From: Ascidiella aspersa
Taxonomy: Eukaryota
Length of the DNA: 64,000 nucleotides
Reading direction: 5' to 3'
Assembly: GCA_963924565.1 (NCBI GenBank)
Contig: OZ004608.1
Coordinates: forward strand, 29,884,001 to 29,948,000
Position 1 is the first letter of the stretch; each line of letters starts with the position of its first letter. Shown one piece after another: positions 6,866-49,291 of the stretch. Made by a program: the position numbers and the translations under genes. Below the pieces are notes generated by a model. It did no database searches, was not told the DNA's origin, and saw only the letters and a program-made list of their open reading frames with translations.

Positions 6866-7317
6866 TTTTTCACTTCCGCCCGGCCTCTGACACGCGGTTG
6901 TTCTGTTGTTTGCGGGACCACACATTCCACTTGAAACGGCATTGCGCTCGCTTATACAGTACAGTAAGTACACAATAGTTGCCACCATACACTAAGTTGC
7001 TTTGTGCGGCCAAGAAACCCGACCCACTCAATTAGCATCCGCCCGGTGTCGAGTAGGCCGACCCGGCGCCGAAGCAGCCATACGTGACCGTGACCTTGAC
7101 CTGTGACCCGGCGTTTCCTCGCACGACGTTCAATATATCGTGGCTTTGCGTTTTTGCGAAATTTGGATTTTGGCCGCCCGGTATTTTGGCTTTGCGCATA
7201 AATCGGCTTAACCACGGCGTTTTGGGTCGATTTCCTCGACAGGGTACAGAGGGTGTGTCTGTGGTTGTCACACACACTTGCGTAAAGCCTATACAGAGAT
7301 CCAGCAATACGCTATAG

Positions 7318-7637
7318 CAGGGGGTTCTTAAACTGGGGTCCATGGACCCCTTTGGCATGCGTGAATTCGTTTTAGAGGGTCCATGACGGCCTAGTTAAAA
7401 TATTAGTATATATTTAAAAATTAATCAAATTGTCAACGAACATAGTTTATTTAAAAATAAAACCTTTTCGCACTGAATGCATCAAGACTCCATTACACTT
7501 TCACATTTTTTTGCATTAGAAACAGCGGATTTTTAAAGTCCATTTGTATTGTGACGTAAATGTATGACGCCATCTCTAAAAATCTCCTTCGACACTGGTC
7601 TATGCGAAGCAAAAAAAAAAAAGTTCAACAACCCCTG
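7318..7637. mobile_element. Non-autonomous hAT (Charlie/Buster-like) element
   Basis: TIRs cagggggttcttaaact / agttcaacaacccctg; 8-bp TSD cgctatag / agctatag (7/8); internal similarity to 49556-49912. Confidence 0.8.
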
Positions 7638-7781
7638 AGCTATAGTCTGTAAGCTCACAAAGGACACAAATGATAAGTTTTATGGGCTTATGGAATCCAA
7701 ATCCATGGCGGTAGGTTTCTGCTTGTCGATCACTGTTCCTCTGACGCGTATATAAAAAATAAAACTCAAAGTTAGAAAATC

Positions 7782-7898
7782 CGAGTAAAACCAGGATGAA
7801 GGATTTTTAAAGGAATATATACTTCGACTATGCTGGCATCCTCAGTTCCTAAAGTAATATATATTCCTTCAAAAAACGTCGGATCCTGGTTTTACTCG
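7782..7898. repeat. Foldback (imperfect palindrome), probable MITE remnant
   Basis: cgagtaaaaccaggat pairs with atcctggttttactcg; inner aaggaatatata pairs with tatatattcctt. Confidence 0.8.
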
Positions 7899-10419
7899 TT
7901 TTTTTTATATTGTGCAACTCACGAGTAAATTTTTGACAGTTTAACATTTATGCATCTCAAGTCTAAAAGAATGCAATAAATTTATGGGTAAGACTTTGTG
8001 TAACATTGTTATAATCCTATTCGATTCGTTTCTAAAGCTTGTTGTGCGACCACCTACATGGTCACTTCACCACTAGTTTTCAAAGCCCTTTTGCACTGTA
8101 GACTGAAGTTTGTTTGCCGACAAAGCATAGAATGCATACATGGCAATATATAATGTGAAGGTGTTTGTACTAGCAGAATGTAGCAAGCATTGGCGTCTTG
8201 GTTGTTTCTGGACTCTCGCGCCTATGTAGCACAGTTGGAAGAGCAACGATCCCGCTATGACCAAAAGGTCGTGAGTTTTAACCTCACCGAATATATGTTT
8301 TTCTAGATTGAGGGCTTGCATCATTAACCGACAGATTCGGTTAGTATGCTATAGCTTCCGGTTTACTACGATACGAATGCCGTTATTGTTGCCAAAAAGT
8401 GACTCCAGAAGGGCTAGATCACAGTTGTTGTACAATGTACACACATGTGGGTAACTTTCATTACATGGCAACATGTTGCAATTTAAACATACAACATAAT
8501 ATAGTAACGAAGTGTGTTACCCGCTACTCGTTAAAGTCAAATGTAAAACACAAAATTCTTCAATTTCTCACAATATTAATCGTTAAAGTTGGAAACTCAA
8601 AATGACACTTATCAAAATGTAATTTTAAAATACGGCTCACGAAAGGAATTTCGATACACGCCGACCGTAAAAAGTCTCATTCACAGCGACCAAAACGATA
8701 TTTTCCGCTCTCGTAAATGTCTCTGGGTCGCGCCGCGGGATAGAATTTCCGTCCTTAACCACCCTTGTAGTCGGCAACTAAAATAACTTTGTTGCCGCGA
8801 GGACGATGACGCGGTTGTCTATGAAGACCTCGCTCGCTCACAAACCAGGCGTGCGGTTTTTTCATTAAAATCGAGTTACAGTGTATAGAAAAAGGATAAA
8901 GGGAAATAATGGAGGACAGTTATTCGTACCGTATGCCTATGCCTTTTTAGGGTATAGGGGTCATTTAAACTGCAGATTGGTATCATGACCATAATATAAA
9001 AAAAATCCATTTTTCTCTTCGATAGGAATCCTAGCTTATGCATTCGGTTCCATGTTTGCTAGGCGTTTCGCCATTTAAAGTTTAAGTTATTTGGTTTGAA
9101 TGTATTTACTGCATATCGGTAACAACGCTGTTCGATATAGTGGAAAAATCTTCCGTTTGCCATTTTTATTGGGATGCAAAATCACACTTTAAACAAAGGC
9201 ACGGTTAAGGTTGCTGTAAATCTAGATTAAGCTTGTTGAATTTAGGGATCTTAGACCAACTTAATCGCTTTAAACACTCTCAAGCAGCACGGAAAATTAG
9301 GAGTTTTATTGCCTGGCACTCCATGACTGTGCTTCTATATATGTTCGATAGGGTTCTTTAGCAATTATAAAGACTACTAAAATGGGAGCAGATGCCTTAT
9401 ATTTCGTAATGGAATACAGGATCGCATTTAACCAGTGGCAAAATGTCCTAAAACGGTGCTTTATATACATCGAGAAGCCTGCATTCTCACCCGCTCGCAT
9501 ATTGCTTGCGTTTTGATGCCAATTAAGTTGGAAGGCTTTTGTCTGATCTCGGTCATTGCCTTGGAGCGCCCGGCCCATGAAATATGCATGGCACGGTTTG
9601 TACACGCAGGAGCCTTCAAGTTATCGCCGGGCGCTTTTACACGAAAGCCTTGCGCGTACAATATGATGATGTATTGTAAAGGAAAAGGCGTCCAGATCTG
9701 ACCGATTTAGACAAAGCTAGTTAATGCTTTGCAAGATCGCTTTGTTAAAGATATCAGGCTGTAACAATTTTACTTTTTTATTGCCAAATGTCGCACGACG
9801 TTCAATATATCGTGGCTTTGCGTTTGGGGTCGATTTCCTTTTTTATTGCCAAATGTCGATAATTCAATTCGTTAAAGACATTAAGCGTTCCAAAGTCCTA
9901 ATATATATTATCAAGTGCCCACAATTCAACTTATGGAAAAATGAAACATTTCTATGTAACTTGTCTTGGCTTGAGGGCAACCCCTTTACGGCGCCAAGTT
10001 TGGGGTTTAAGAATGTCAAAGGAGGTAACTTATTTCCTTTTAAATTACTTTACATCGCTGAATCTTTCATGAGATTATTTTCACTTCAAGTTGGCCTTAC
10101 GTTTAACGTTGTAATACCAGCAAATGACGCTTATAATCCGCATTAAAACAATGGTAAATATAGTGTTTTGTGTTTTAATTATGCTGTGTCAGTCAACTGC
10201 AATACATAAAGATCGGTAGAAACAGTGTTTTGTAGTTCCTTTCGACTAAATAGATATCTAGAAATGTCGTGTTTTTTGCCATAGATAAAAATATAAACCG
10301 GAATTCTCGAGCTCACCAATCTATAAAGTTCAGGTCATGACGGTTCTTTCGAGATATTGCAAAGCGAAGATGGGAAAAATGTCATTTGTATACACTAAGG
10401 ATGTTTCGCATGATTTTGC

Positions 10420-11080
10420 CCAATTTCGCAGCGCGCAGAAACCTGCGGTGCGTGCATTTTCGAATACGCTGAAAATGGCGACGCTCAAAGGAACCCTAAA
10501 CCCGCCCCCCAACAGAGACCCCGCCCCTATTTGGTCGTCCACCTTTCCAGAGGGGATCAAGGATGTATTGCCCTTCTCTCGAACGACTGGCCTACTGCCA
10601 GAACGCGCCCAGAAGCAGTTCGCTTGCATTGTTTCCGGCCGAGGCTAGGTGCCTAATGTGGCACCGGGAACGCTTCGGGGCGATCGCTTCCTCTTCTGGG
10701 TTAAATATAGCCCCATGCTCTTGCCGTTTGCGGGCCGCGGGACTCTTGCCAGAACTTCCTCCTCAGTACACATGTTTATTGCTTGCACTTGGTTGCCGCG
10801 ACGAGCCTGATCCGATTTGGAACGCGGCTCGGCGTTTCTCTTTCTTCCTTTGTTCGCCTTTTTTCTTCTCTCTGTTTTAAACAGGTTCAAGTCGCTCTCT
10901 CTCGCTCTCCGAAGGAAGCGAACAGGAAATCAAGGTGCCGTTCTTGCTTTTCGCCATTCCTTGCAGGACTTGGTATTTTTAGGAGCCGAGGAGTGTATTT
11001 TTAGAAGCGGGGTGCAATAAGGACCGGGTATTTCTGTCTGACTTTGGTTATGTGTGCGTGTCCGTCCCCGGGATTCAGGT
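10420..11080 (+). promoter_or_regulatory. Promoter-like CpG island (GC boxes, YY1-like motif), possible non-coding exon 10885-11078
   Basis: CCCGCCCC at about 10501 and 10520, AAAATGGCG at 10472-10480, long pyrimidine tract ending acAG at 10884, donor CAG|GTACTG at 11079. Confidence 0.35.
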
Positions 11081-13319
11081 ACTGACTGGCATTTTGAGTG
11101 TTGCCTATTGTTTTGTCGCAGCATGTAATCGACGGTAGCTATAAAAAAACCTTGTCTATATACGGAAAAGCTACATGATTCGCATACTGCGGCAATAGCG
11201 CGCAGGCTGTATTTATTAGTGCTCTTTCAAAAACTGATCCAGCAATCAACTCGCTCGCGCATGACTCATAAAGCAATCGCGGCGCATTTGCACTTCCGCG
11301 CGATTCGGACAAGTTGAAATCGATAGCAACTCCCCGAAATGGCAGCGGAATGCGACAATCGTGCGCGAATTCCATGTTCGGACACCCATTCCCTTGTTTC
11401 CTGGTTTCGACCGCTTTCAGTCGACTCTTAAGGGCAGAGAACTCGTCTGATCCTGCCTAATCATTTTTCAAGCTTATTGGGATTGGAAGGTATTTTCAGA
11501 CTTTGATGTCGGCGTTGGGCCTACCGGGTGAGGTTTTCTGTTTGGGTAAACCCACACTGTAAATTGGAGTCCTGTTTTTGGGTTTGTCAAAGCGTGGGTA
11601 TTTCTACCCTTCAACTGATGTTGAACAAAAACACCGACAACCTTAGGATTGAATTTGCCATGCTTCGTGTTTTATTTAAACCCATCAAGCTGAGTAGATG
11701 ATGATTATTCCATGATGCACCAAATTAAAAAACCCTAGGATGGAAATTAACATGTTTTTGCAAAAGGGGATGCTAGAAGTTTATGGAGATTCCGTGTTAA
11801 AATGTGAGCGCTGGTCTAGAATTCAACCACTTTTTTACAGTAACGAAACGAGTTGGCAAAATTGAAATTGCAAGGACGAAATAAATGTTGTAGAATAAAT
11901 ACGTCAGTTATATTCAATGCAGCGGCTACCCTTGCTCTTTGGCAACGACAAATGAATTAACTAAGAAATAAGGAAGTTGACAATAAACTAAAAAAAATTA
12001 TCAATTAGCGAAGCATCACATTACGGACACTAGAATATAAAGAATCGATAGGCTACTATAGTCTAGCTTCGAATTAGCGGTGAATCTGAACTGGGAAAGT
12101 AGGCTATACCAATACCTACAGCTAGCACAATTTTACTGTCCCGTCAACTGATGTGGATATTTAGATTGATAGTTCATTACCCCCTAAAATGTGGAAATTT
12201 GCCCCCTGGGGTAAATTTACCCCAGGTTAAGAAAGGCTGTTCTAGACCAACATAAATGTGAGATTCTATTATTGACGTATTTCTATTTTAAATTAAGCGC
12301 AGTTGTATTTCAAGCGGCGATTGCGAACTAAAACAACTATTTAATTAAACGTTTTTTTCACACATCTATACTAATTTGTTTATGACGCTGAAAACACATT
12401 AGCGCTCAGGTTATGGCTTAATAGCGGTTGAGGAAACATTGGTATCCGGGACATGAAAAGTGCATTATGCTCCCAAGCGATTCCCGAGAGATTGGCTGAA
12501 ATATGTCACCTTGATCGTTACAAGTAATTATCCTGTAAGCCCCTTAACTTGTTGCCACTGAGGGCAGGTTGAACGCTGTCCTCCAATCAAGTACTTTGAC
12601 TATAAGGCACTTCGGGTTATTTTCAACAGGACGTCGGCTATTTTTAGAAAGCGCTTTGATTATTCAGGCGTACAATGCAAACAGCGACGCAATCGCTTTG
12701 GCAAAGGACAAATTACCTCATGTTTAAACCCATCGCTAATATTTCTTTCAAAAAAATAATTTATACACCCTTGATTATTTTTTTTAGGGAATGTACATTT
12801 TCAGTAACTTATGCTATTAAAAGTGTTAAGCGGTTTTATTAATTCGGGCCTCATTTTATATTAAAGGGGTGAAAGGAACGAGATAAAGCAGAATGTAATA
12901 TTCCGTAGGCAAACAAGTAGATTTTCAAAACTTCCATTTATGTATGTCATTCCAATTATTCAGGTACGGGGAAATGTCAATGAACAGACCCGTGTTTTTT
13001 GTTCTTTTTTTTTGTTTTTTGTTTTTTGAGCTTTTTTTGTATATATAATTTGTTGTTGACATAATATAACATGTACAAAGGCGGTCGGTCCGGTTTGGCT
13101 TTAACTGCGTTTCCAAATAAGTTCGGTATCTGGGAGAAATACGTCGACGTGGCCCATATTAAGAAAATTAGAATTTTGTCATAATATTTGTCTTATGTTT
13201 GGTTTACTTATAAAAGTTTAGCGTATAGACTTTGGTCGCCAGATCTTCGCTGTCATATTTACGCCAAGCATTCATGTCCCGGCGGCAAAAAGGTGGCCGA
13301 ACGTATACATGGCCTTACA

Positions 13320-13601
13320 CAGTGTTTATCAACCTTTTATGGCTAGCGGCATCCCTCAGAAATTATAAAATAGATTGCGGCACACCTACAAGACTTTTCC
13401 GTAGGTAATTCACCAGAATGTCACAATAAACGGAACTGGAACAACACACATCATCTCTACACAACGTATAGGAAGTTATAATTGGATTGATTTCAATCTA
13501 ATCGTTACAAAAAAGTTGCAAGAGTTAAGCAAAAATCAGATTCTTAAAGATTCTCAAAAACCCTTGAGCATTAGAAATGGAACCCCAGTTGAGAACCACT
13601 G
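13320..13601. mobile_element. Non-autonomous hAT element
   Basis: TIRs cagtgtttatcaac / gttgagaaccactg; perfect 8-bp TSD gccttaca (13312-13319, 13602-13609). Confidence 0.85.
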
Positions 13602-16600
13602 GCCTTACATGTAGCTGTTTGCAGGCGGCCTTAACGGTTGTATATAAACTCAATTCGACTTTGTGCCCAGGACAGGAAGTCATACTGGTCCGCCTATCTC
13701 CCGCTCTGATCTGCACCTTAGGCCAGGCATAGGGATCACCACAGGGCGGGCGGCAATGCCTTAAGAACTTGGGCAAGTCGATCGGAAAACGATCGATTCC
13801 TGTGTCGCCTTTAAAAATAGCGCCCGACTAGCGAACCTGTTGTTTTTGTTGGGCGGGCGCTGACACTCTGCCAGAATTGCGCGAGCATTTAAACGCATGT
13901 CGCTTTGTCGTCAAGTCCTCGCCTTCGGTTCTTGCGTTGAGCTGCTCCACTGCGGAAGCAATATGCCGCTCGTGAGATGGTTGGACGACATGTGAACGAG
14001 CGCGCTTTCCACGTTTGACATATTTTGTAAAGGCATTCGAATGTTGCCACTCAATCGAATTAAGAACTTAAACATAGCCTGGAGTAGACAATGCAAGCTT
14101 GTACCTTTGGCTAAAAAAATCTGGCATTTTAGTGTATTTCAAATAATATTTTAGCTACAGAATTGAAATCTTCCATTCTGATAAAGAAATCTATATATGG
14201 TTGAACAACGGAATGACAATGAAAAAACTTTGTCATTTTTTAACGTTACAAACATCTGCAATAAATCTTATCATATCTATGAGGCAAAAAATAGCCAAAA
14301 TTAATATTGTACTGATGTTAATATGAAATTAGGAAAATGTCTTTACTTGTTGGTTTGGCTTACTTTAGGTTTGCAAATCATCGTTTTGATTAACTGTGTT
14401 TTATTTCATTTGGTATCATACAAAAAATAAGTGAATGTTATAAAGTTAAAAACAAAACAAAAAAATGTAATGTTGCCGAGACGCGTTGCTCGGGACATGG
14501 TGTACCAAAGCAAGCTGCGCACTTACCCAGGAGAAGGCTTTCTTCTAGTATATAGGGTTAACTGTACCGTACTTTCTGGCCCTTGAAACTTTTAACGCTG
14601 CTGGCAAACGGTGTTTCTTCAAATTCGCAGCATCAAGATACCCCGAATACGGTTTACCACCTTACCCGCAAAGTTATGTATTTTCCTCTAATAAATCCCT
14701 TATAAATTTGTTTCGTCAGACAGGGTGCTCAAAATCGTGTCCCGTCAATTGGTGGCCTTAATGAAATAAAGGGAAGAGCATTTTGACCGGTGTACGGCTA
14801 GGGAGCGGAAAATAGACGAATCACCGTGTTACCTTGTCGGAGATTCAACGTTATATTCGTTAAAACTAATTGCATGATTTACGTTATGAGTCTGTACGTA
14901 GACACTCCTTTTTGTTGAGCCCTATGTACAGTGTAATTTCTTCACCTTGAAGCTGCTAGCCGAACGGGGTAAATACGTTTATTTTGCCACGTTGCATTTT
15001 CCAAATAAAATAAAAGCACTGGACAAAATTCTACTTAACTTTTTACCATCGGGATTGACCTTCAAACTGCAGTTCTAAACAGAGCTCTTTCCGAAGCTTG
15101 TTGTTTCAAGCCATACTCGCTTTCTTAAAAAGATCATAAAAATTCCCCGCAACTTAAAAGCAAAGAATTTCGCGGGGCGCAGAAGCGCGCAGCCGCCGAC
15201 CAGCCAAGAGCGCGCTTGTGAATCGTGGCCTAATCTAATTGGTCAATTAACTCAAGCGGGCCGACAACGGCTAGGCCCGGGCGCTGTGCGTCGATTCCCG
15301 GCGGAGCGTTTGGGCGTCTCGGGGCGCGTCGACCTTTTAGCTGATCAAAAGATTAAATGCGGATTACGAACCGCGGTGGAAGGAATACGCGACCGCGATA
15401 TAGCAGGGCTATAGAGGAAAAGCCTCGGGCCCCAGGGCCTTTACATGCAACTTTTTGCTGACAAGGCAGGACTACTTTGGTTTGCCGCTTTAACCTGCAA
15501 TAACCAAGTAAAATTTCAAATCATGTTAGATAGTATTCTGTTTTTTTTAATACAGTTGTTTTAGATCTTTCTTATAACCGTTGTGGTTCTGTTTGGATCT
15601 TACGATATAGATAAAAGATCAACAACTAGAAGTGTTGGAACAGCCATAGATCAAATATAAGCCATAAAAAATAATAACAATATCTTATTTTATCAACATA
15701 AAACATAAGACAAATTAAAACGTAAGATCGGACGTTGATCTGTATTTTACTACGTTATCTTTCAGTTGCAATTTTTATTTCTTACGTCACAAACATCGGA
15801 GTAGTCATTAAAGCAAAAAGCTCTTGTCAATCAAGGTTTTGGATTCCATAAAGACCTAATCTTTTATTTCTAAAACAAAGGCCAGTATCTTTGAAAGCCA
15901 ATACCAACCAAACAATACTGCTTTGGGGTTGCGTAACTTGACAACACCTTTTAGGTGCTTGTTGAAACGATGGCGAAAAAGCGGCCACAAAAGAGTGCCG
16001 GCCGGTTTGCAAAGCGGCCGCGAAACCTGGCCGTCGAGTTGGCTCATCTCGGCCCCGAGATTCCTGGAAAGATGCGCACACTTATTTGCAATTGCAATTA
16101 GACGGCGGCCGACTCTTGCTCGCTGCCTCCACAACCTCGCTAAGGTTTGCACTTCTCGCCAAGTCCCGATCGTTACGTCATCAAGCCAAAACGTCAGTCG
16201 GGAGCGAGCGGTCGCGGTTCTGGCGCTCTATATCTGCTGCGATGCTTGTCACAATATTCGTCGCGTTTTACATTAACTGACTGCCCGGCGGTTGATTTTT
16301 ACACTTTGTTATTCAGTTATGCCGCTGTATTTGTCTAAAGCCGCAAGAAACGTTTCGAGCATTCCTATCCCCAAAAGAGCGCTGTCGGAGTTTGCAGATT
16401 TCCCTAAATTATTCGTCCAAAAAAACAAAACTAACTCACGTGGGCCTATTTGCGAATTAAAAACGCACGGAGCCAAAAGTTGTCACAATCGCAGAAATAG
16501 TGATGCAACTTGAATACTTGTAGTTGCTATTTACGTTCAAGGGCTAAACTTTCCCGCGGCATTGTGGCCTTGCGACCAAAACAGCACGGAAGCCATTTGT

Positions 16601-19276
16601 TTTACAAACTATTGGGAAAATGTATTATACCTACGTGGAAATTTCGACAGGTGATGCCTTATGGTCGTTGCATTTTTAGAAGAAGAAAAATTCGATAATT
16701 GAACAACGTTGACTGAACGCGCTTCTTTTTCATCGGTGTGGTTGTATTTGATTTGAACCTTTCCGCCGTTCACGCAACGATATATTTAAAGAAGGGAATG
16801 ATGTTGTTTGGTTTTACCATTTCTTCTGAAATCAATTACACAAAAAATCAAAGAGGATATTAAAATAACAAAGCGACACGTTACGGTACGAATTTCAAAG
16901 CGTACACGAAATACATAAAAGCGGTCCGGGCCGTAATTTGTTTTCGGCTAAGCGCGCTTTTTACGAAGAGCCAAACAGTGAAATTTGATGACATCCGACC
17001 TTCGCGGTTTTGTCGCATTAAAAGTGCCCCGACTTCCGTTTATCTAAGGCCTCGCCGCAGATTAGACGCGGTTTAAACGGCGAAATGTATTCGGTGCTCT
17101 TTGAAGTGGCCGTTAAGGCGGGCAAATCGCATCCTGACGCGAATGTATTTTTGGATATCCAGCCTGAGTAAATTACCGATGTGAGAATTAAAAGGGTCAA
17201 CCCCAGTCTTAAAATCCTTGTTCCATGCTGATCAAGCCGTTTCTCGCCCGTATGCACTGTCATGTATTGTGGATCCGACATATTTCGGACAGCCGCCGGC
17301 GTTATAACTGTGCTTTTACGGTGCTGCTTGCAATCCTGTTTCGGGTGCTGCGGGCCTTGCTGAACTGACCAATCAGCGAAGTGGTGTCGCCTGCGCACCG
17401 GCATAAAAATAGAGCAAAGGTATCACCTAAGGCTGGGCGCTAAAAACGATACGCAAAGAGCTGACAACACTTAGTGAAACGCTAAAAAAATCGGCCGGGT
17501 TTCAAGGCTCGTTTTCCCGCGGGCTTGCGCTGATTTTTTTCCTGAAGTACCAACAAGCCGCTAATCGTAGCGTTGCAATGCCTTTTACGCATTGCGCTAG
17601 TCTGCTATGAGACCCGCCGATAGTCGTGCTGATTGAAAACCTGATGCAAATTCAATTGCGTAGCAGTTAATTGCGTTTATGTCGGTTTTGCTGTCCATGT
17701 CTATGTTTTTTGTCCATCATGATGTATCGCGGTTTAGCAGTGAATTACATTTTGTTTACTGCTACTTCCAGACTGCGGGAAAAATACAACAGCCAGCGTC
17801 TAATTTAAAAAAATGTTTTATTTTTCTTAAAAAAAAAAATTATGTGAAATTGGGCTAGTATAAATTGGCAAATGATGGAAGAAAAACATTGACCCCAATT
17901 GTACAACATTTCAAGTGCATTTTGCTCACATCTGTATACAAAATGTTATCTCTTTGGACTAAACGTTGTTAGTCTTGTGTCAGCAGCTTGCAACGCTTTT
18001 TTCCCGAGGCATGCCGTACATCAATTTCGGCCATTTCTCATCGAGCAAGCCGTTGAGGTTAGACGGTAATTTTTTTTACTAATCCCGGCCGGTCTGTGTC
18101 GAACACAGATTGGCTCAAGCGCCGATAAACACAAATAAATCAACTCGGTAACGTAATCCCAATGTTTTCCTCGCCTGTTGCGAGTTGACTGGCTGTTCTG
18201 TGTCTTGGTTTTTAAGCGGGTAAAGGTTATTTTTTGTGGGAGAACGCGTTTTATGTTTGCCCGCCGAACACAGCCCTGGTATGCGAGGAATTTTGAAACA
18301 AGTGTGTAATATTTATTCCTTTGGGCAGCAGTATACTCTAGCAAGGCTAGCTGTTGAGATCAATCACTAAAATTGCTAGCTTTGCTAGAGTATTGTGCTG
18401 TTACTGAACAGGAATTAAGGTCGACATTTATGTTACAAGGGTCGAGGTAATTTTAATTATCACATATTCAGTGCTACATTATTCATGTGGATTTTTATTG
18501 ATTGATGGACGCCTTTAAAACTGATGCGAACATTTTTTTATCGTGATTATTTAATTTTAATTCCTTTAAAGGATTTTAATTATTCCATCTGCTATATAGT
18601 AAAACAATCGAACCGTGAAACTGTGGTTGAGAATTTTTCAATAAAAAGGTACTGTCAAAAAACTGTGACGAACTCAAAGCAGCGTAAATTTTTGATAACT
18701 CTTTTTCAATTTCTCTGGCTTAAAAAATCTGAATCGGGTGCCTTAGTCACAAGTAATCGGCTCAAAATTGCCGAGCGCGACATTTCTGTCGCTGATCGCG
18801 CGTCGCAAGCCGCCTCGACGGAAAGGGAGGGCCTTTTATTGATGTCGCTGCGACGACAGCAGTTCTCGCGACACGCGCGCTCTCATTGTGAACAAGCGGG
18901 CAAGTACACCAGGGGCCCGATTAGGTTATCCGATCGTCGTTAAGCGGCGCACTTACGGCCGGGCATCCGGCGTTCCTACGCAAGCGCCACTCCAACCGGG
19001 GTTTCGAGTTTTGATGTCCACTCGTGAGGGGCATTGTCAAGGCGCCGCCGATTTTTTATTGCCCCTGATCTTTGGCTGGCAAACAGCTGCCGGCCCTTTG
19101 TCCGCGGCTCGAGTACGCCTTTGCCCGATTCCCGATTGCCCGCGCGCCATTAGCGGCCCATGCGCAGCGCCAATTTGTGTTGGGTGTCAAATCAATTACA
19201 CACAGCACTTTTGGGCGCGATTGACACGGGGAATGGAATGTACCTCTTCCGTCGCTCATGCCGCTCGTGTGTCTCT

Positions 19277-19745
19277 TTTTCGCTGGTTAAGGGCAGGTTT
19301 TGGGACGGCGAGATTATCTTTGTAGCAAGTTTGAAAACTTTACAGCCTGATGGAGTGATGGTTTTTCTTGCACTACAATTCTGATTACAGGTCAACTAAT
19401 TTCAATAATAACCTTTAGAAGGCATCCTTATATTATTATGAGTATGTTGCATTCGTTGTCTTCTTTTCGCTGGTTAAGGGCAGGTTTGTGCGGTTCGAAA
19501 TCCGGCGACATTATCTTTGGAACAATTTTAAAAAGCTAATTTTTTTAATCCTCATGGTCTTGCTTACACTACAATCCTGATTAGGCCAACTGACTTCGGT
19601 AATAGCCTTTTTGAAGGCATCCGTTATATTATTATGAGTATGTGACATTCGTTGTTTTCTTTTCGCTGGTTAAGGGTAGGTTCGGGCATTTTGATATCCG
19701 GCAAGATTATCTTTGGAGTAAAATTTTTTAGGCCTGATGGCCTTG
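19277..19745. repeat. Tandem repeat, about 2.5 copies of a ~190-bp unit
   Basis: cgctggttaaggg.aggttt at 19281, 19468 and 19664; gaaggcatcc.ttatattattatgagtatgt twice. Confidence 0.9.
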
Positions 19746-22700
19746 AATGTCGAAAATAGAAAAAACGATTTCAACGAATTCCGCTGCACAAAAACGTTGC
19801 CACCGAAATTTTACCTGTAAAATCTAGCCGACACCATTTCTAGCTTTGTTTTTGCACCTTGTTCGAACTCTAAATATTTGCAATTTTCAAGAGTCTATCA
19901 AAACGTGATATCTCAGGCACTAAACTGTTTAGAACAAGCCTATTCGCCCACACGAAAAACTCAACAAGTAGCGTGATGTGATCAACAAACACCTGATTGG
20001 GAGCTCATCGTGATCGCGTCGTTACGTAACATGTGGAAATAAATAAGAACTTTTTTAGTAAAAGGCGAACGATTTACACGTTGTGAAATGAGAACTTGCC
20101 GATATTACGCAACCTCAAACGACATGAAACGCTTAAAAAATGGAGCGGCGGGTATGAGTGGCGGTTTTAGTCGGCTCGCACACAAAAAAACTCGCCGCCG
20201 CCGCGCAGCGAAAAAGAACAAGCGGCGCTGCAAATGCGGGCCAGAAAAAAGCATCTACGACGGCCGAGCTCGATGCTTGTGCGTCTCTCTCTCTCGCGCG
20301 CCTCTCTCTACACCCATATGTGTATTGCTCCGCCCGTTTTACCCTGCAGTTGGCCGCCGGCGGGTGCGGCGTACGCAGGCCGCTCTTGAACCTTACTCGC
20401 TCGCCTGGGTGGAAACGCTGAGCTTGGTTTGGCCGCGGAATCCCGGGGAAGGTCGACGTTAGTTGGCAGCGCGTTCGGGCCGCAGCGGCGCGTTTGTTTT
20501 TGGCAAAAGCGCCCGCTGGCTGCTGGCCCTTTCGGTTTTGAGGTTTTCCGAATGGGCAGTCCAAGTGTTATTTGACTGATGTGCGTGTAATTGCGCGTTT
20601 GCGCTTGGCGTGGCGAGCTTAAAGAAACAAGGCAATATTTGTCGTTGGAAAGTGTCTTTTTTTCAGTCGTGTTGCGTATATTTTCTTTTGGAAATTATGC
20701 AGTCGTACTGCATATACAAGAGCAAAATCTTGTATTTTGTTGCTTAAATTACATTTTTGTCAATTAAACGTATACAGGATTTGCAGCCAACAGTTTATAA
20801 GTTTATTGCTGCTAGAAATGCTTTACAAATGAAATTAGTTACAGAAGGACTTGTAGGCGGTAGTTGATAAGCTGGTCAAGTGCTTTTTTGGTCAATTAAC
20901 TTAAAGCTGGACTTGGGTGGTAGTCTACAGTGTCTACACGATGTTTGTTTTCATCTTAGCAAAAGCAACGTTGCCGACCTAGCGATTCGGCGATAAGCGT
21001 CTTAAGCCAATGCACGCGCTTTTGGGCTCACATCCAAAATGGCGGCGCAACTCCTACGGTCCTGTTCTTAAGCTAGTTTATTTATTTTAAACACTGTTTC
21101 TGTAAACAAAAATGCGAGCGTTTCTGTAAACAAGAAAGTCAGCGGTTTGTTTCAATTGAACTTTTAGATACTTTTAGACACGATAAAGTTACAAAGTTAA
21201 GTTCCGAAAAAAAATTGATAACAACTTTGTTATGTCTTGACATCACCAGCGACTAAAAAGACAAGGTTGAAAGCTCGCCGGCCTAGAGTTACAGTTACTG
21301 AGTAGCAGCGCATTTTGCTTTTTGCAGCAACAACCGCGGCCGAGCAAGAAATACACGACAGAGTGCGTGGTTTGTTGTAGAGGGGCGCACGCGGTCGCCT
21401 GCGCGTTTTGTTTGTCGAAGGGCGCGCGCGCTATAGTCACTGGCCACGGTCCAATGTCAACTGTGTCGCGGACTCGAATCTCTCTCTCTCTCTGTGAGAA
21501 CTTACCGCTGCCGGTTCGACCTCTCTGTCTCTGTGTGGCTTCGAATGTGTGCCGCATTGGTTCACCGCCACTAAACTACATGGACATTGGACGTAGGTTT
21601 TTCCGGCGGTGCGGACGGCATGCTTTCCTTCACGGGAGTGCAAATTTTTAACTGGTGAAAACTTAAAAAGTGCCACGGTTTGCTTATTTGTTCGCGCAAC
21701 GCGTTTTTGCCTGTACCCTGCCGCTCTCCCCGCATTTTCACTAATTAAAACCGAGATTTATCCCCCGAAGGCTGCGTGCGATTAATTTTTTTAAGATATA
21801 CAGAAATGCTTTCATGCCGCGTTTAGATCGCCATTTTACGATGTTTGTAGTACATTGCTGCACATTTCTGCCATAGCATCATTTAACAAATTAATTTACT
21901 GTTTCAAATATAAAAATATAAAATTAACTTCCCAATGATTTTGTTTGTTTTGTTGAATTGCAAAACAACTTGCATTTAAACTTGAAAAAAAAACTGTTTG
22001 CATGATCCAATGAAAAACTGCAATAGTCAAATATTGTCCATGAATTCGTCAATTTAAAACGATAATTTTTTGTTTTAAATTTAGCAACTACCCGCGGTTT
22101 GATACTGATTGGCCCCCGGCCACACAGTTTTCTTTTAAAAGCAACTCCAAAAACTCAACTGCTATCTTTAAAGTATCTTGCCAAACCAAACCCCTCTTTT
22201 ACGACAATCAATATCTACTTCCAAAAGAAGTGCTTTCCTGTCCAAACTGAGAAATATCCTCCTTCAAGTGCCCGCAGTAGTTGCATGCAAATTTTGCCAC
22301 AAAGAGCTGTTGACTGTGCTCTCTAAAGCAACACAAAATGGACCGAGTTTCAGACAAAATGTCTGGTCAAATCCGGAGTTGTCAGAAATGTATGGGCGGC
22401 AAAAATACGTTTTCGCTTACAGTTGTCGCAAAACAACCGCACTTATCCTGCTGTCACGCTCCGGTGAGCACAGCCCGCTTTTGCTAGTTCACGTCTATGG
22501 TTTTTAACTTTAGCGGAATTTAAACAAAAACACAATTCGGTAGAAGTTTATGCGGTCAGTCGTTGTATAAACCGTTTTTTCCTAGTAGTTGTTATGGTTG
22601 TTTTTTTATCGAGTGTTTTAAATGCTACCTTAACTGCTCTAAAACATATTCAATGCTAAATGAAGGGCAGTACAATAAAATCAATACTATTTTTAACTGC

Positions 22701-25700
22701 CGGGTTAATTTAACTGCAATTTCAAGTCAATGATTATAGTAGAAACGGTTTTTGATTAAAGTCTGTGCATTTGTAACCAGCGCTTTGCCTGGTGTTTTTG
22801 AATTCACCTGTTGCAACTGTTCCCAAAGATATCGGCGAAAAATGCTGGCAAATTTGTCAACGATGCCCGGCTAGTTGTCCCGTGCATTTGCCCGAATTGC
22901 GCGGCGTACACGTTCGCCGTTCCCGTCGAGTGATTTCGCTATCGATCCGAAACTTGTTGCCGGTTGAATTGTTAAGCGTTAATAGAACGGTTTGAGCGCT
23001 GTGTAAGAGCCAAGTGCGTATTGGCAAGTTCGCCGCTTTTGAAGTGATTTAGAACTGTGCTGAGCCGACTACAGAAACTTGTGTTACATAACTGCAATTC
23101 GAATTATTGAAAGCAAATAATTTTATTTATTTACTTGTTTAGCATATTTCAAGTGAATATATGTCTGATAACTGAAAGAAAGCCTTCGGAAATTGGATTA
23201 TAATTAGTTTTGGCCTGAATGGATAAACGGCATTCTTCCGCCGCCATTTTTCGGTTTCTGCAAGTTAATTTAAGCGCCTTGTCTACCTTTATTGGACTCC
23301 CACAATACAAACAAAACCGAGTAGGGCAATTTGTCGTAAAACTAGGGAATGAAGTTACATGCAAGCAACAAGTGATACCCAACTTTGATATATCAATCCG
23401 TATTACGTCATAACCTGGCTCATAAAACGTCATTTTTATATTAAATTACCTACTCTCTAAGATTCTGCGTTTTAACAAGATTTTATGTTAATTAAAGTTT
23501 AAAAGCGTCATTTACAATCGCGTTGTCGTAAACTGTGTTTTGCATGTTCCTATAAATAATAACGTAAATACTTTTAAAGCCGATGTCAATTTGACAAAAT
23601 TAATTTTACATTAATGCGCGACCTCCGTGGCGACACCAAGCGTTAAACTTGTCGATGTCCTTTTTATATTCATTGCTCTTTCTGTGCGTAGATTGGCATT
23701 TTAACACGCCAAAACGAATGTTTACTTGACTGACTCGATGGCGTGTCGTTGGACCGGTTTTCGAATCGCAGTGTGTGGCAGTGCTGACAGGAGTAGGCTG
23801 TGGCGTGCAACACTTCATTTTTGCACGTCTTGTAACTTTGGATGGGACGGTGTAATAGTGACCCTTTTGTAGTACGCCATAGTATAACAACATAAATGTT
23901 TGCTTAAAACTTGTTAAGTTCGTTGCTGAGTTACTCGTTTGGGACCTAACCTGATAATAAAACGCACCGAAAATTTGAGTCATGTTTCAATTTGTAACGG
24001 TTTGAGATCTTTATAAGATAATTTATTTCTACTCCAACAAAAATATACAAAACGAGTTGAAGTTTCATCTTAACTGAATATTAGTGTTTTCAAAAACAAA
24101 AATGAACTTTAAAACGCTACACAGGCCAGACTGATGGGTAAATATACAGACCCTAAAGGAAAGGACTATTTTTCGTAAAAAACACAAGGTGGACGCCCGG
24201 CAAAATTTTCTCGAAAATATTCTGCTACACCAGGAATTGCTAAACATTTTTTGAACGCGAAGCCTCTCATTTTGGGGGTTTGCGTTGGCCAGGGTCGGCA
24301 TGGAATGTTTACATTTGACATCATAAAACAACTAGAGCCAGCTGCTTTGGTCCAACAAATGTGAAACTGAAATAAAGTCTAAATACATTTTTTTCTACAC
24401 CAAGATTTTAATTAGTCCTTCATGCAGCCTCTAAAGCTATCACGTACCCCAAAGGGGTCCAATAACTCCTGTGCTATACAAAAGATGAGCGCCTTTCGCC
24501 TCTTGTGGGTGTCAAGGGCGAGTTTGAATTCCTAGCAAACCACGCAGTAATATTAACGCAGCAAGCCGTAGTGCACCGTCTCGCCTGTGCGCATCGTTTG
24601 AGACTACCACCCTCATTGCCGCGGGAAGCGTGCCGCTAATGACAGCAGACGTTAATTACAAGCTAATAATCATAAATCCATCATCGGCGGCACCCTGGAA
24701 GTTTTGTTTTGCCCTTTTTTTGCGTCTGGCGCGATCAAACATCAGTGCGCGTGCGCGGAAATGACGTATCACCAAAAACCCAAGATGTGGGCTAAGCCGT
24801 TGCCGGATCGCGCAAAATTTACTTTAAATTTAAATTCAGTGTCAACCACGATGCTTTGAAATAAAGTTTTTTCCCTTTTAAACCCTTGTGGTTGAATTTG
24901 AAATTTTCCACATAAATACTTACAAAAAGTTTTTGAGTGAAATCCTTAATATTTTCGACTCTTTCAATAGCAAGCAGAATACGTGCCATCCCCGGTCTGC
25001 TCATCTCAAAATTGTTGTCGGTGACTCGGCAGAAAAGTATTTTCGCAGAGGCGGTTTTGGTGCTGCTGATTATATTTGCGTTGTTTACCTTTTTCGCGAT
25101 GGGACCGGGTCGATTTCGATTGCGACTTGGAATTGTTTTCGACATTAAAGTGCGCGTGACACAATTAGGCTGTGTTGGTTCGTCCGTGTGCAGACCCGAC
25201 CACTTCGCAGTCAAAATGAGGTTTATTTTAAGCCTTTCTGGCGGCCCTTGGAATGCGCGGATTAATGGGATAAAAGTATTAATCGCAAATGCGACAAATA
25301 ACAGACACGATTAAAAACGGAAACGTCGAACAACTGAAAACCGTCAAATAGCAATTAACGAACAAAAATAAAGGCGGTCATTCGCCAGGTCGTTTAAGTC
25401 GGAAACGTTTTAAAACGAAAACGTGTGATAATAAAACTATCAATCACGAAGCAACTATTTTGTTAAAGTGTTAGGCGTTTTTGTTTTTTTAAACTCTAAT
25501 TTTGGCTTTTTAAAATATTAATCTCTTTCACATCTTTGTTATGTACGTTATAATTGGTGGGCTCTTGCTTTTTTCACGTATGGTTGGCACGCAATCGAAA
25601 CGTCTTGGTTATACTTTTACTCTATGACTTGTATGAGAAAACAAAACACCACCTTAAAAAATATTCATGGAAACCTCGTCCGATGGCTGTGTGCACAGTG

Positions 25701-26879
25701 GTTATGCAAGAGTACATCCTACAGCTGCATATAGTACCAAAAGACTTTTGGCAACACTCAACTCAAGCAAGTGTAGCCCTTCACGGAGGTGTTTAAGCTA
25801 CGGGCCGCCCGGCGCATCCTGAAAGCGGTCCATTTGTCCCCCAAGCGACCCCAAGTTACGAAACAAATCAATGTCGTGTATAGACTGTATAGTTTTTGGC
25901 AGCCTTTCTTTGACTGCGACAGAAGCCTAGCAGACAGACGTCAAATCTGCTCGTCTCGAATGTAGTCCAAGTTCCCGTTTCTGAGACAGTTTTGTTTTTA
26001 GTTCAAGGCGGCGAAGGCGACCTTCCTCGACCGCCTTGTTTCGTTAGGACCGGTTTGAACCGGTTTCAACCTGCCCGCATTCGCGTCAGTTGTAATCTTC
26101 GTCTGAAACAATATTTCGCCAGCGCTTATCTCGGTTTTACATCGTTTTTACGCGCGGCAACTTTCTTTATTGCCTTAAGCAAGCGTTCCTTTAAGTAGAT
26201 TTACGTCCACCATTTTGCAGCGACGGCGTTCGTCAACGCGGCCAAGGAAAATACAGGACGATTTGAGATTCGCCGCCGCTGCCACTGTTATAACGCGCAA
26301 ATGACGTTGATTTTAATGCCAGACTGGACCCTTGTAAAACAGTCAAAAGTCCAACGTTTTAGTGTACATTTTGAGAATTACGTCATTATAGAAGGAACGT
26401 GAAGGAGAAACCTCTTATTTCCCGCAATCACACTCTCGCAAAAACGTGAATTTAAGAAAGCAAAACTATACATTCAAGTCGTGAGAAAATAAATTCAAGT
26501 TGTTTACTATCAACTTAGTCTTAGAATATTTGCGAAGGAAGCGTTTATTCTGGTTAATGACGGTGTAATTATCTCCAAACGCAATACGCATACAGATTAA
26601 AAAAAAAACGTTCTCAGTGCTATGCTCTTTATGCAGCAATGAGCGTCCAAATTATGCAAAAAATAATACAAAAAAATGACATATGACGCATGGGCGGCAA
26701 AATCCGGGTCACGAACGCTTTTTCACGTGGCCGTCACGTTTTCCCGCGTCCGGACAAATCGTGCCCCCACCAACCCTCCCCTGCTACCGAAAAACGCAAT
26801 AAAGCCAAAGTCGTGCTTGAAGTTGAAGCTCGCCTCCGGTTCCAACATTTTTTTACCTTGATTTAAGATAATAGTTTAA

Positions 26880-27220
26880 CCTTAAAAAAAACAGCACTAA
26901 AACAGGCTAAACAAAAGTGGCTTTAAATTTGGTCAAGGTGCGGTAAAACGGATGCAAAAATATTTTTGGAGATGCCTGGACCAGTCGGTTGTTGTGGAAT
27001 TCAATTGAAAAGTTAGAAATACTTTAAAAAAAATTGTAGCCTTTTGTAAACTTTAGTATCCATTACAAGAAAGCTGGGTTCACCTAACTACAGGTCGCGA
27101 CCAGAAAATTTGACCTAAAACCGGCAATAAAACAGGCTAAACAAAGTGTCCTTAAAATTGGGTCAAGGTGCGATAAAATTAATGCAAGTATTTTCTGGGG
27201 GACGTCTGGGCCGATCGGTA
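26880..27220. repeat. Diverged duplication, 230-bp offset
   Basis: taaaacaggctaaacaaa...ggtcaaggtgcg.taaaa at 26898 and 27128. Confidence 0.85.
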
Positions 27221-28549
27221 TCCCTTTCGCAGCTGCCAACAGCGCCCGCGCCAGATTAGTTGCGTTGTCTCGGCGCATACCATGACTTGTGCGCGCAACA
27301 AACATGACTAGTTCGTTTTCTTTCTTGTGTTTGACTGATTGCCTTTGCCCGTCTGCCCCGACCAGGCTGCCCCCAGCCGTTCGTTTGTCACTTTGCAACT
27401 TTGCGTCAGTTGTTCAGGTTTTCAGTCCGCGTTAAGGTTAAACACTGAGCACGCGCCGCAAGTCTCGTGAAGAGCGATTGCGCTTCACGCGAGCCGAAAG
27501 ACTAGCTTTCCCGTCAGAATCTAATCCGAGAGGATTGCATTTAAGACTTCGAGGTTAGGGTTTCGCAACTGGCTTTGTAAGCGCTCTCGTTGCGAATGTG
27601 CGCGTTGCTCTCTTTTACTGCTGGTCGCGCAACTTGAAGTTTGTCGTGCGCATTTTGAGCTGAAACCTGTCGCCTACCAATGATACGGCGGTTTTCTTGT
27701 AAAAACCGTTAGAAATAACATTGACAACCGAGTACAAAGCGTATTCAAAGGCTTTAGATTTTTAGTTAAACAGGTGGCCTGTCGTTTTCAGTTGTGTCGT
27801 GCTTTTTTGGCAATTTCGAACAAACCTTACAATACGTGTCGCGGATTTTCACTTTCGGATTGCGGCCGTGTTTTTTTTTTCTATTTACAGACAAAAAAAA
27901 TGGTTTAGCACGTTTGTGACAGTTGCCTTGTTGTATATTTACTTTAAGCCTATACTTGTAACGTCTGGCAATTTTTAGCCGATTCGATCGAGTCAGAGGG
28001 CGATTTTATTGCGACTTGCGCCATTGTTGAGATTTTAATCCCAGTTTCAGTTTCCAGCTCGTGATTTCGCGTCTTATTTTCGACGTTTTTATTTCACCTT
28101 TCGCCAGTCAACATAAACGAGCAAAGTTTGACCGTTTCTAAAGCAAACATCGGTTTCGAAAGTGATCTCGTTTCGTTGCAGTTTTATATTAATACCACAG
28201 CAACCGTTAGCAAGCATGTGGTTGTTGCACCAAGAGTTGACCCCAACGCGGAGTTATTGTCCACGTTTGCGCTTTTTAGCTTGGCCACATGACCCGATTT
28301 GTTTTGCCGTAAAAATAACACGCTCCTGACGTGGTTGGCAGCTTGCTTCCATTTTGTTCGCATCGCTTTTATCTTCTGCAATAGCGAAAGTACGTGGATT
28401 TTCATTCTCTCAGCGCCGTAGCGATATACAAGGCTTGATTTCGGACAAAATCTCCTTCGTTTTTCTTTCGACCTAATTTTTGACCGTTTATAGGGCGAAA
28501 TTTTGGCTGTAGTTCCAAAAATTGTGGAGCGCCAATTTCCTGTGAAGGC

Positions 28550-28690
28550 CAGTGTAAACAAGTCACTTTGTAATAATCTAATTTAAAGTCAAATCATTTG
28601 CGAAAAAGTTGAGTCGTTTAAACCCTTAGTGAGTCTAGTCCCTGCAAGTCAATTGCCATTAAAACTCAAATCCAAGTCAGGTCGTTTGTA
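28550..28690 (+). mobile_element. Fragment of the AAGTC-repeat element
   Basis: cagtgtaaacaagtcactttg... resembles the left end of 34807-35299. Confidence 0.5.
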
Positions 28691-29429
28691 TCAAATCGTT
28701 ATATCGCGAACATTGTATTTTACAATACAAATATTAAAAACTAAACATAACGCTGAAATCTATTTCGCGTGTGTGAAATAGGTGAGTAAGACACTTTGTC
28801 GAACAGTTATTGAACAGTATTTTATCTTTTTTTTTTTATCTTTTCTTTTTTAGCTTGATAGACAGTCTTATATCACTACGATTTTAAGAAGACCGTTACG
28901 CTTTGCAAACAGTTTTCCCTATAGTATAAAATATTCCTCATCAGCTAAGGGTGTTTTGTCAACACTTAAAATTGCAATATTATTATTGCAATAGCTTTAA
29001 AAGTTGATGGCGCGGAAATAATTAATAATAATTTTGCCTCTTAGACCACACCTGGGCAAAATACGTCCCGCCAAACAATTTGGTATAACCCTTCAATTTT
29101 AAAATACCTAATGAAAAATGACACTTGCAGAGCAACCACGCTTTTTCCTAGTCTCATCAGATTTTCAGCTTTCCATAAAGAGAGTTACACTTCATATTTT
29201 GTGTATTTCAGATCCGATTTTGGATCCAAAATATTTTCCTATACTCGTGGGGCCTCTATTCTGTATTGCATTGATTAATTTTTTCTTTTCCCCGTAATAT
29301 TTTCTTTTTACACTTGCCTTATAGCTCTCAAAAGAAAATTAGGCAACCCAAGGGGCCGGTTTTATCAAATCACAAAACATTTGTCAGAATATCGGCATAC
29401 GCAAATCATCGGGATTTCTTAACACAGAT

Positions 29430-29449
29430 GTCATTCGTTTTTTCTGCAG
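29430..29449 (+). other. Candidate splice acceptor for the long NFI exon (exon start 29450)
   Basis: ttcgttttttctgcAG ending at 29449, about 105 nt upstream of ATG 29555. Confidence 0.55.
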
Positions 29450-29554
29450 AAACAGTGTATCATAAAACTATTGCAAAAAAAATACTTTTGTGTAAAACTT
29501 CCGTAAACCTCGACGGCAGCGCTGGTCTCGAGACGCCGAAGCTTGTGATATGTA

Positions 29555-31039
29555 ATGAGCGCAACAATTGGCCTGTGTCAGCAGCAGCACCTAGCAGCAG
29601 TCGGTCCGAGCCTGTCCAAGAGCTGCGCACACCAGTTCTATAGAGACGAAAGGCGCGCAAACGACAGTAGCAACAGCAGCAGCGGTAGCCAAGGCCAGGC
29701 TTCCGACTTCAGCAGTCCCATTCCCTTGGCGGGACCTGTGAGCATTATCGGAAGGCGCCATTCTTCGGCTGTTTTCCCGGCACGTTCAGTGCGCGCGCGC
29801 CAGACTGTACAGCAAGGCGATCTCATCTCGGATACGGCGACGACGCTGTCGCAACAATATCCTGCCGGACAGTGCCTCCGCACCTCCGACAGCGCTTGGC
29901 AATCGCCTTCAACAGCATCAGCAGTCGTAGGCTTCAACGGCAGCCACGAGCCAGTTCGGCGCAGCTACAGCGCTGGCACAGTGGAGGCCAGCGCCATTCT
30001 CTCGTCCAATGAGCTGCAGCACTCTGTAGGCGCAGCGGCGGGCAACCACCATCACCACCACCCTCAGCTGCACAGGTCGTGGAGCTTCAAGGACGACCCG
30101 TACACCGCTTTCCGCACGCGCGGTCACTGCGCCTCGGTCGACGAATCGGTGCTGACTGCTGCCGAGTTCCGCAGTCGCCTCTTTCAAGACGCTCACCCGC
30201 GTGCGCGCTCCGACTGCGCGCTGGACGAGGAGGAGGCCAACTCACAGCAGAACCAGCAGCTGCAGCAACAGAACCAGCAGCAGCAGGGCGTGTTTTTCGC
30301 GCAGCCGCGCAACCACAGCCAGTTCCTGCAGAGCTTCGTAGGTAACTTAGGCGCCGCCGCCGCGTCGGTTGGCGGCAGCAGCTCGGACAACTTTAACGCG
30401 GCGGTGGCGGCGGCCGCAGCGGCACAGCGCTACCCGCAGTTCCTACACAACCCGGCTGCTGCGTTCGTGCACGGCGCCGGGCAGTACGACGACAAGCAGT
30501 CGGGCCACGCAGGACAGAACAATATACAGCAGCGGTTTGCGGCGCGTGCCGACCCCTACGTAGCGCCCTTTCCTTACCCGCGGCACCGGCACCAGAGCGT
30601 CGGCGGCGCCGCGGCCCCTGGCATTTGTCCTTCCACCGCCCAAGCAATGCTCGCGTACGACGCGCCGCCTTACTCGTTCTGTTCCATCCAGGACGAGTTC
30701 CACCCGTTCATCGAAGCGCTGATGCCGCACGTGAAGAGTTTCGCCTACACGTGGTTCAACCTGCAGGCGCGCAAGCGCAAGTACTTCAAGAAGCACGAGC
30801 GACGCATGAGTCCTGCCGAGGAGCGCGCCGTAAAGGAGGAACTGCTGCGCGAGAAGCCCGAAGTGAAGCAGAAGTGGGCTTCCAGGCTGCTTGCCAAGCT
30901 GCGCAAGGACATCCGGCCCGAGTACCGTGAGGACTTTGTGCTCACCATCACTGGCAAGAAGGCGGTCTGCTGCATCCTGTCGAACCCCGACCAGAAGGGC
31001 AAGATACGACGCATCGACTGCCTGCGCCAGGCCGACAAG
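29555..31039 (+). CDS. NFI: Nuclear Factor I family transcription factor, large coding exon (379-aa low-complexity N-terminal extension plus first part of the DNA-binding domain)
   Basis: Translation contains the hallmark NFI sequence [40 protein letters not shown]...[32 protein letters not shown]...[24 protein letters not shown] starting at 30692. It ends at a phase-0 donor AAG|GTACGT (GT 31040). An in-frame TGA at 29546 bounds the ORF upstream. Third codon positions are GC-rich throughout. The conserved part (30692-31039) is certain; use of ATG 29555 is less so. Confidence 0.95.
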
Positions 31040-48242: not shown

Positions 48243-48429
48243 GTCTGGCGACTCGACCTCGTCATGATTATCCTCTTTCGGGGACTTCCCCTGGAGTCGA
48301 CCGACGGCGAGCGCCTGTCTAAGGCGCACTCTTGTGGCCAGAACGCGGGCCTGTGCGTCCAGCCCTACCACATCAGCGTCACCGTGAAGGAGCTCGACCT
48401 CTACCTCGCCAACTTTGTTAAGGAAGAAG
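48243..48429 (+). CDS. NFI: NFI coding exon, second part of the DNA-binding/dimerisation domain
   Basis: Acceptor ttctccAG (48241-48242), then [62 protein letters not shown], which directly continues RQADK. Phase-1 donor G|GTGAGT at 48430. Confidence 0.97.
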
Positions 48430-49231: not shown

Positions 49232-49291
49232 ACACGACAGAGGAAGGGACCAGAGAAGATGACGACACATTGAGGGAGGAATCGTGCAAAG
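49232..49291 (+). CDS. NFI: Probable NFI 60-bp symmetric (phase 1-1) exon, acidic linker DTTEEGTREDDDTLREESCK
   Basis: Strong acceptor tgttttctgtttcctacAG (49230-49231), purine-rich open frame in the correct phase after the previous exon, donor AAG|GTGAAA at 49292. No homology support, as the NFI linker is poorly conserved. Confidence 0.7.

Follow-up and report, generated by a model that had tools for sequence, protein, structure and literature searches.

The NFI gene and its long reading frame

The window, by which we mean the whole 64-kb stretch of Ascidiella aspersa DNA that was analysed, carries part of a gene for an NFI/CTF transcription factor. The gene is identified by the NfI_DNAbd_pre-N and MH1-like DNA-binding domain of its predicted protein, with PF10524 (NfI_DNAbd_pre-N) found at residues 378-415 (E 7e-26, 90 bits against a cut-off of 27). 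PF03165 gave a partial match of 13 bits, under its cut-off, and the domain is split by an intron. Residues 380-495 matched the structures of NFIA/B/C/X with E values of 3e-66 to 3e-62 (NFIA, E 2.6e-66 in the PDB). The DNA-binding domain is shared with vertebrate NFIA/B/C/X (E 3e-66), but the intron that splits it after QADK sets the A. aspersa gene apart from them. NFI exon structure was reportedly treated by Fletcher in 1999. Eight further exons beyond the window, at 65.5-75.7 kb, matched Ciona NFI (E 4e-5 to 5e-24) and account for the Ser/Pro-rich C-terminal region of NFI/CTF. The coding features within the window are listed below.

29555..30691, + strand: 379-aa leader of the long NFI isoform, predicted to be disordered, single copy in the genome
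30692..31039, + strand: first part of the NFI DNA-binding domain (DEFHPF...QADK), the predicted internal exon of the short form and 3' part of the long first coding exon
48243..48429, + strand: next exon, remainder of the DNA-binding domain (VWRLDLV...KEE)
49232..49291, + strand: small following exon starting at 49232 or 49241, from a weak tblastn match and splice signals

An ATG at 29555 (+) starts 379 stop-free codons, the last of which is Q379 (30689-30691). This frame is in phase with DEFHPF at 30692 and stays open until a GT donor at 31040 after ...RQADK. It is the sole stop-free stretch of more than 212 codons in the window; the other two + frames have 9 and 6 stops across the leader, and a run of 379 open codons was reached in none of 5000 base shuffles (longest shuffled frame 325). 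The leader is composed of 12.9% Ser, 10.6% Gln, 15.3% Ala and 5.0% His, with tracts confirmed at residues 165-169 (HHHHH), 231-244 (14 residues) and 282-290 (AAVAAAAAA). The original prediction of a stop-free frame rich in S, Q, A and H and fused to DEFHPF was thus borne out. Its further descriptions, codon-biased and low-complexity, applied to parts of the leader. Codon bias was strong after codon 130 (GC3 0.80, GC at 4-fold sites 0.75) but weak over the first 130 codons (0.62 and 0.55, respectively), and low-entropy windows held 23-41% of the residues, depending on the cut-off, while the remainder carried conserved motifs. Over its whole length the leader had a GC3 of 0.74 and the DNA-binding exon 0.87; total GC was 0.36 in the sequence immediately preceding the leader and 0.33 in the intron that follows. 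A genome search returned a single NFI locus, with the leader present once.

Several other features were seen in the window. GC-richer patches at about 2-3, 20-21 and 36-38 kb could be regulatory. Self-inverted, MITE-like elements of about 300 and 150 bp lie at 50778-51079 and 53505-53651, and a divergent copy of the sequence immediately preceding the larger one (50375-50600) lies in inverted orientation at 7388-7617. A similar 32-34 bp unit, rich in CAAGTC/GACTTG, forms dispersed arrays at 34819-34897, 35133-35258 and 48797-48915, and other 31-32 bp repeat arrays lie at 31173-31237 and 55730-55829.

Two probable first coding exons

In RefSeq, the NFI of Ciona intestinalis (XP_078484863.1/XP_078484864.1), Clavelina lepadiformis (XP_076812296.1/XP_076812297.1) and Styela clava (XP_077969715.1/XP_077969724.1) is represented by isoforms X1 and X2, which are predicted models, those of X1 being titled 'uncharacterized protein'. 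The X1 leaders are 325 aa (Ciona), 378 aa (Clavelina) and 383 aa (Styela) long and share the islands of the A. aspersa leader described below. Isoform X2 has a different leader of 74, 71 and 105 aa, respectively, that is attached exactly at DEFHPF; from that point on, X1 and X2 do not differ in any of the three named species or in one further cluster. The term isoform in the original prediction held up; the leader matches X1 of all three species, where it is already annotated.

We searched 164 kb with the Ciona X2 leader by tblastn and found a distal first coding exon (E 1.5e-6) outside the window, about 10.1-10.3 kb before its first base and about 41 kb upstream of DEFHPF. Aligned with X2 leaders, the peptide of this exon scored z 20.6 for Clavelina and z 14.8 for Ciona, but the Styela X2 leader was not alignable to it (z -0.9). 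Used as a search query of its own, the distal exon gave no match among the three candidates scored. The Styela X2 leader (P0184) ends in its own R-R-H-S motif, which resembles island 1 of the long form and may be there by chance. The features that bear on the two starts are as follows.

G000:C2:29873732-29873950 (L009:9732-9950), + strand: distal first coding exon, 73 aa, with a phase-0 donor GTGAGT
1..29439, + strand: downstream part of the putative first intron of the short isoform
29440..29449, + strand: acceptor-like site read from the sequence, a T-tract and CAG lying 105 nt ahead of the ATG of the long form, which may serve as a trans-splice or 5'UTR acceptor
29450..29554, + strand: likely 5'UTR of the long isoform, with one RNA read pair over about 29460-29605

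Use of the distal exon would make the window's first 29 kb, together with a further 10 kb outside it, intron 1 of NFI. The NFI binding consensus is TTGGC(N5)GCCAA in an excerpt of PMC1277823, and a site with one mismatch (TTGGC-N5-GCCTA) lies at about 9053-9067 of L009, 680 nt before the distal ATG, as a possible autoregulation site; such one-mismatch sites total 13 in 164 kb.

Spliced to 30692, the distal exon would read through in frame, a joint that is predicted. The acceptor at 30692 has the highest pyrimidine share (0.8) among the 68 YAG sites in the leader, and the same bases also encode the conserved YSFCSIQ. Since the X2 models of three species join at DEFHPF, the distal donor is in phase and the 3' splice site at 30692 is retained inside the exon, the exon at DEFHPF probably serves as a hybrid first/internal exon that gives a long and a short NFI. 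Hybrid first-internal exons, as an excerpt of PMC11797052 describes them, are first in some transcripts and internal in others and keep a strong 3' splice site, the same dual use that we propose here. The starts of the exons in that excerpt are typically centred on the 3' splice site, whereas in A. aspersa the putative start is some 1.2 kb upstream of that site, and what is added is conserved coding sequence for 379 aa.

The 5' end of the long form could be made in more than one way. Ascidians use spliced-leader trans-splicing, and either this or a non-coding upstream exon could make use of the candidate acceptor ending at 29449. A distal exon spliced to this acceptor would run into an in-frame stop at 29546-29548, and its fusion with the long leader was rejected for that reason. 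The invariant Met365 (30647-30649) stands 15 residues ahead of DEFHPF in all 11 aligned leaders, and a third isoform of vertebrate size could begin there.

Transcript evidence was sought in one RNA run, of which 7.8 million records (about 6% of the run) were searched, and four reads matched the region 28600-30745. One read pair, 99% or more alike, covers about 29460-29605 and spans the long-form ATG, in the orientation that a sense transcript would have in most stranded libraries; the remaining two reads were partial and lay in an upstream repeat. A short repeat-like stretch (29182-29228), about 250 nt upstream of the putative long-form start, is matched at 90-95% identity by several partial contigs of high depth. 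In this 6% of one run there was no read over 29608-30745 and no splice joint, so that RNA coverage of 29450-30691, which had been proposed as a check, was obtained at its 5' end but not over the rest. Contigs from sequencing run X4 cover 29423-29608 and 30101-30349, but they also cover upstream non-coding DNA at a depth of about 2 and were therefore attributed to DNA rather than to expression. X4 also shows a loose end ahead of 29423, which matches nothing in the genome and was not accepted as an upstream exon. A search of sequencing runs listed none of RNA type; three runs of unstated kind contained 86-94% of the sampled words, and of the two whose reads were aligned, run X1 gave no contig along the leader and run X2 short partial pieces only, possibly as a filter effect.

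Among relatives, P0016 carries the leader and a whole 883-aa protein on a 3323-nt contig. In one cluster, a contiguous 242-aa leader of unrelated sequence (P0165 of genomic type; P0166 and P0167 of spliced type) stands beside a leader of the distal type (P0021); the long (P0166/P0167) and short (P0021) forms are both on mRNA-sized contigs of 2.5-2.9 kb, and the leader of P0165 is contiguous in DNA. The coding exons span 46 kb in A. aspersa and these contigs are too short for such a span, which suggests that P0016, P0166, P0167 and P0021 are spliced transcripts. A further cluster, with Oikopleura dioica, has a leader of 76-80 aa ending in SFCSLQ beside another leader (P0176). By these sequences the two-leader design extends past the ascidian motif set, and the long leader of P0166, with none of the six motifs, indicates that some tunicates do without them. 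A tree built from the DNA-binding domain, with 3 of 24 branches starred, is too weak to place such sequences.

Conservation and islands of the leader

With residues 1-385 as the query, 7999 candidates were scored and 8 matches obtained, of which Ciona intestinalis NFI isoform X1 ranked first. Two further leader carriers came from a profile search across 1.84 billion representatives, among the 150 matches listed of 704, and one of these, used as the query in turn, found the X1 isoforms of Styela clava and Clavelina lepadiformis (8 matches among 7991 scored). Over the leader only, identity to X1 was 45% for Clavelina (386 columns), 43% for Ciona (355) and 35% for Styela (290). We take these three genera to represent the three ascidian orders. 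The alignment to their X1 isoforms places the window in an ascidian NFI gene and makes the leader ascidian-wide. By this comparison the leader is real and coding, and it is already in RefSeq for three genomes. Homologues, which the original prediction proposed to look for in related genomes, came from all three orders, and the frame was kept across them through numerous in-frame differences in length (291-423 aa).

Across the 11 aligned leaders of 291-423 aa, 32 invariant columns clustered in about seven islands, and the spacers varied freely in length. All 10 other leaders scored z 33-67 against shuffled sequences. A profile of the leader only matched 15 of 162 proteins, all of ascidian type, and no vertebrate or protostome NFI. 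The leader is thus lineage-restricted as had been supposed, but the lineage comprises all three ascidian orders and not one species. The His and Gln tracts cited in the original prediction are present but are the least conserved parts, in contrast to the Ala run and six other islands. The Gln tract was found in 1 of the 11 leaders and is private to A. aspersa, the His run had no alignment to the His runs of three other leaders, and the Ala run was present in all 11; compared with the three RefSeq X1 leaders, A. aspersa adds private Gln and His tracts. A metagenome scan for related loci gave 598 pattern matches, none confirmed. P0019 (UniRef F6XS01, Ciona) is a gene model that fuses a piece of island 2 straight to DEFHPF and looks like a mis-drawn intron within the long leader.

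29720..29764, + strand: island 1, residues 56-70, with the R-R-x-S site S70; S/T at this column in 8/11
29945..29977, + strand: island 2, residues 131-141, with the putative basophilic site S139; S/T in 11/11
30113..30178, + strand: island 3, residues 187-208; RxRxxCASVD in 8/11, also in Styela and Clavelina
30314..30349, + strand: island 4, residues 254-265, amphipathic pattern; HSQLLQNIVGN in relatives
30389..30445, + strand: island 5, residues 279-297, conserved Ala run; Ala run in 11/11
30647..30691, + strand: island 7, residues 365-379; the internal acceptor takes its pyrimidine tract and CAG from these codons

Island 7 is the most conserved block, with a mean of 9.2 of 11 over residues 361-379. 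The motif patterns were derived from the alignment of the 11 leaders, so their 11/11 counts hold by construction; in an independent check on leaders outside the pattern-making, Clavelina had six of six motifs and Styela five of six, and the island 2 pattern recurred in both, neither having been used in writing it.

Arg stands at -3 of a serine in three islands (RRHS70, RRSYS139 and RHRHQS348), with S/T kept in 8/11, 11/11 and 10/11 leaders, respectively. Conservation was higher for serines with Arg at -3 than for the remaining Ser/Thr (7.1 vs 3.9 of 11; 7 vs 54 sites; permutation p 0.011), and Arg at -2 yielded nearly equal conservation (6.5, 4 sites). R-x-x-S enrichment reached p 0.025 for the A. 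aspersa protein and p > 0.05 in the other 8 of 9 proteins. As seven patterns and eight offsets were examined, these p-values are weak.

AlphaFold2 on Ciona X1 gave no helix or strand over residues 1-328 and a pLDDT nearly all below 50. The alignment was shallow (34 sequences) and the second half of the DNA-binding domain was also low, so pLDDT is soft evidence of disorder here. The description of the leader as disordered held up as a prediction at this strength. Conserved islands in a disordered, length-variable chain suggest short binding motifs. No family name was found for any island in Pfam or in a feature and structure atlas queried with the Ciona homologue; the atlas showed one feature match, to the NFI cluster (0.75, under the lead mark), and structure rows with TM at most 0.23. 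Judged by eye against the known patterns, a calcineurin PxIxIT site in island 1 was rejected, the ISIT variants being without Pro at position 1, as was a PP1 RVxF site in the same island. A match to OsmE among PDB structures (E 0.018) was taken as chance. Docking of the leader onto the DNA-binding domain scored 0.00, and no verdict was drawn from it.

Proposed isoform choice, leader function and origin

The best explanation of these results is a single NFI gene with two first coding exons, from which two proteins sharing one DNA-binding domain are probably made, the long leader likely serving as a phosphorylation-gated cofactor arm; we put this reading as a whole at roughly three chances in four. 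The architecture itself, a long and a short NFI from two first exons, is very probable, and the phospho-gate on the leader is a conjecture to which we would give a little under even odds. The short form would arise by splicing the distal 73-aa exon to the acceptor at DEFHPF, as is presumed for A. aspersa, and the long form would start at a putative second promoter just upstream of 29450 and read the 379-aa leader directly into the DNA-binding exon. The conserved R-x-x-S serines may then be phosphorylated by basophilic kinases and bound by 14-3-3, the step that we hold least firmly; the motif classes of PKA/AMPK/Akt-like kinases and of 14-3-3 underlie this reading. The amphipathic and Ala-rich islands may recruit corepressors, also among the less firmly held steps, and the choice of promoter would switch NFI between a plain and a signal-controlled form. 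NFAT, FOXO, CRTC and the class IIa HDACs are known to have phospho-gated disordered regulatory arms, and the NFI leader would likewise be a long disordered region with isolated basophilic serines adjoining a folded effector domain. No sequence homology between these proteins and the leader was found, however, and a calcineurin PxIxIT site is lacking. The regulatory role given to the leader in the original prediction is likewise putative.

Other readings of the leader have to be weighed against this one. The long isoform may be real and its leader a constitutive repression or activation and condensate arm, made of Ala, Gln and His tracts and an amphipathic patch, with the R-x-x-S sites incidental. 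In favour of such an arm, conservation is among the highest in the Ala run, flanked by NF..YPQFL, and in the HxQLLQNIV patch; the R-x-x-S enrichment is weak, and Ala-rich repression domains occur in transcription factors. But all 11 leaders, and both named leaders found later, retain [VL][RK]RSxS[ATS]G, isolated amid unconserved sequence, and we give the constitutive arm about one chance in three. It is highly improbable that the leader stays untranslated, as the GC-rich end of an intron or as a UTR, and that only the short isoform, or a form started at Met365, is made. The near lack of RNA coverage in A. aspersa would fit this, as would the invariant Met365, which would give a 15-aa leader near vertebrate size. 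Against it, three orders retain both the reading frame and the amino-acid islands although in-frame changes of length are frequent, the leader has a GC3 bias and full-length long proteins occur on mRNA-sized contigs.

The direction of change at DEFHPF bears on the origin of the leader. Among the non-tunicate matches many unrelated leaders join at DEFHPF, so a coding extension upstream of an ancestral acceptor is the simplest reading, with a presumed direction of change. The claim that the leader was made by coding sequence directly upstream of an old acceptor stood; exon borders at DEFHPF were read from the A. aspersa genome alone. In vertebrate NFI, too, many different leaders join at DEFHPF among the matches, as alternative first exons would give, the commonest being 1-10 aa, and none fits the ascidian leader profile. 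The converse, that a contiguous leader ending in Y-S-x-C-x-x-Q is older and that vertebrates shortened it to a 9-aa first exon (MYSPLCLTQ) by an intron at CAG|G, would explain why Cys at -4 and Gln at -1 precede DEFHP in 12 of 94 distinct leader ends (tunicate, vertebrate-type MYSPLCLTQ, lamprey VCAHQ and mite SCSMQ), and the SFCSLQ ending of the Oikopleura cluster agrees with it. However, among the 162 proteins compared the leader-only profile found ascidian-type ones only, and Gln is forced by the CAG at a donor or acceptor and Cys, Ser and Phe by the pyrimidine tract, so the likeness may be convergent. We regard an ancestral leader as unlikely and retain the coding extension as the simplest reading.

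A bolder version of the preferred reading, which as a whole we find doubtful, is that tunicates made their single NFI two-mode. A promoter in intron 1 would have given an ascidian-wide signal-sensing arm with kinase/14-3-3 sites and a corepressor patch, NFAT/FOXO-like and lacking in vertebrate NFIs; isoform choice would stand where vertebrates used four paralogues, and the last nine residues of the arm may be the ancestor of vertebrate exon 1. Excerpts of PMC1277823 and PMC11193209 give four NFI genes with alternative splicing for vertebrates and a single NFI for several invertebrates, respectively, and A. aspersa has one.

NFI is a long-studied developmental regulator, and its DNA-binding domain is taken as N-terminal. 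By title and abstract, no description of a tunicate NFI leader was found in the literature, and ascidian transcriptome papers or their supplements may mention the isoforms; the leader is apparently unstudied though annotated in three genomes. The sequence is already in RefSeq, and the news is the comparative reading and not the protein. In the closest invertebrate relatives of vertebrates, NFI can bear a leader of 290-420 aa across three ascidian orders, beside a short form. The end of this leader is a clear case of a coding region doubling as a splice acceptor, and Ciona offers a ready test of regulatory variety from one gene.
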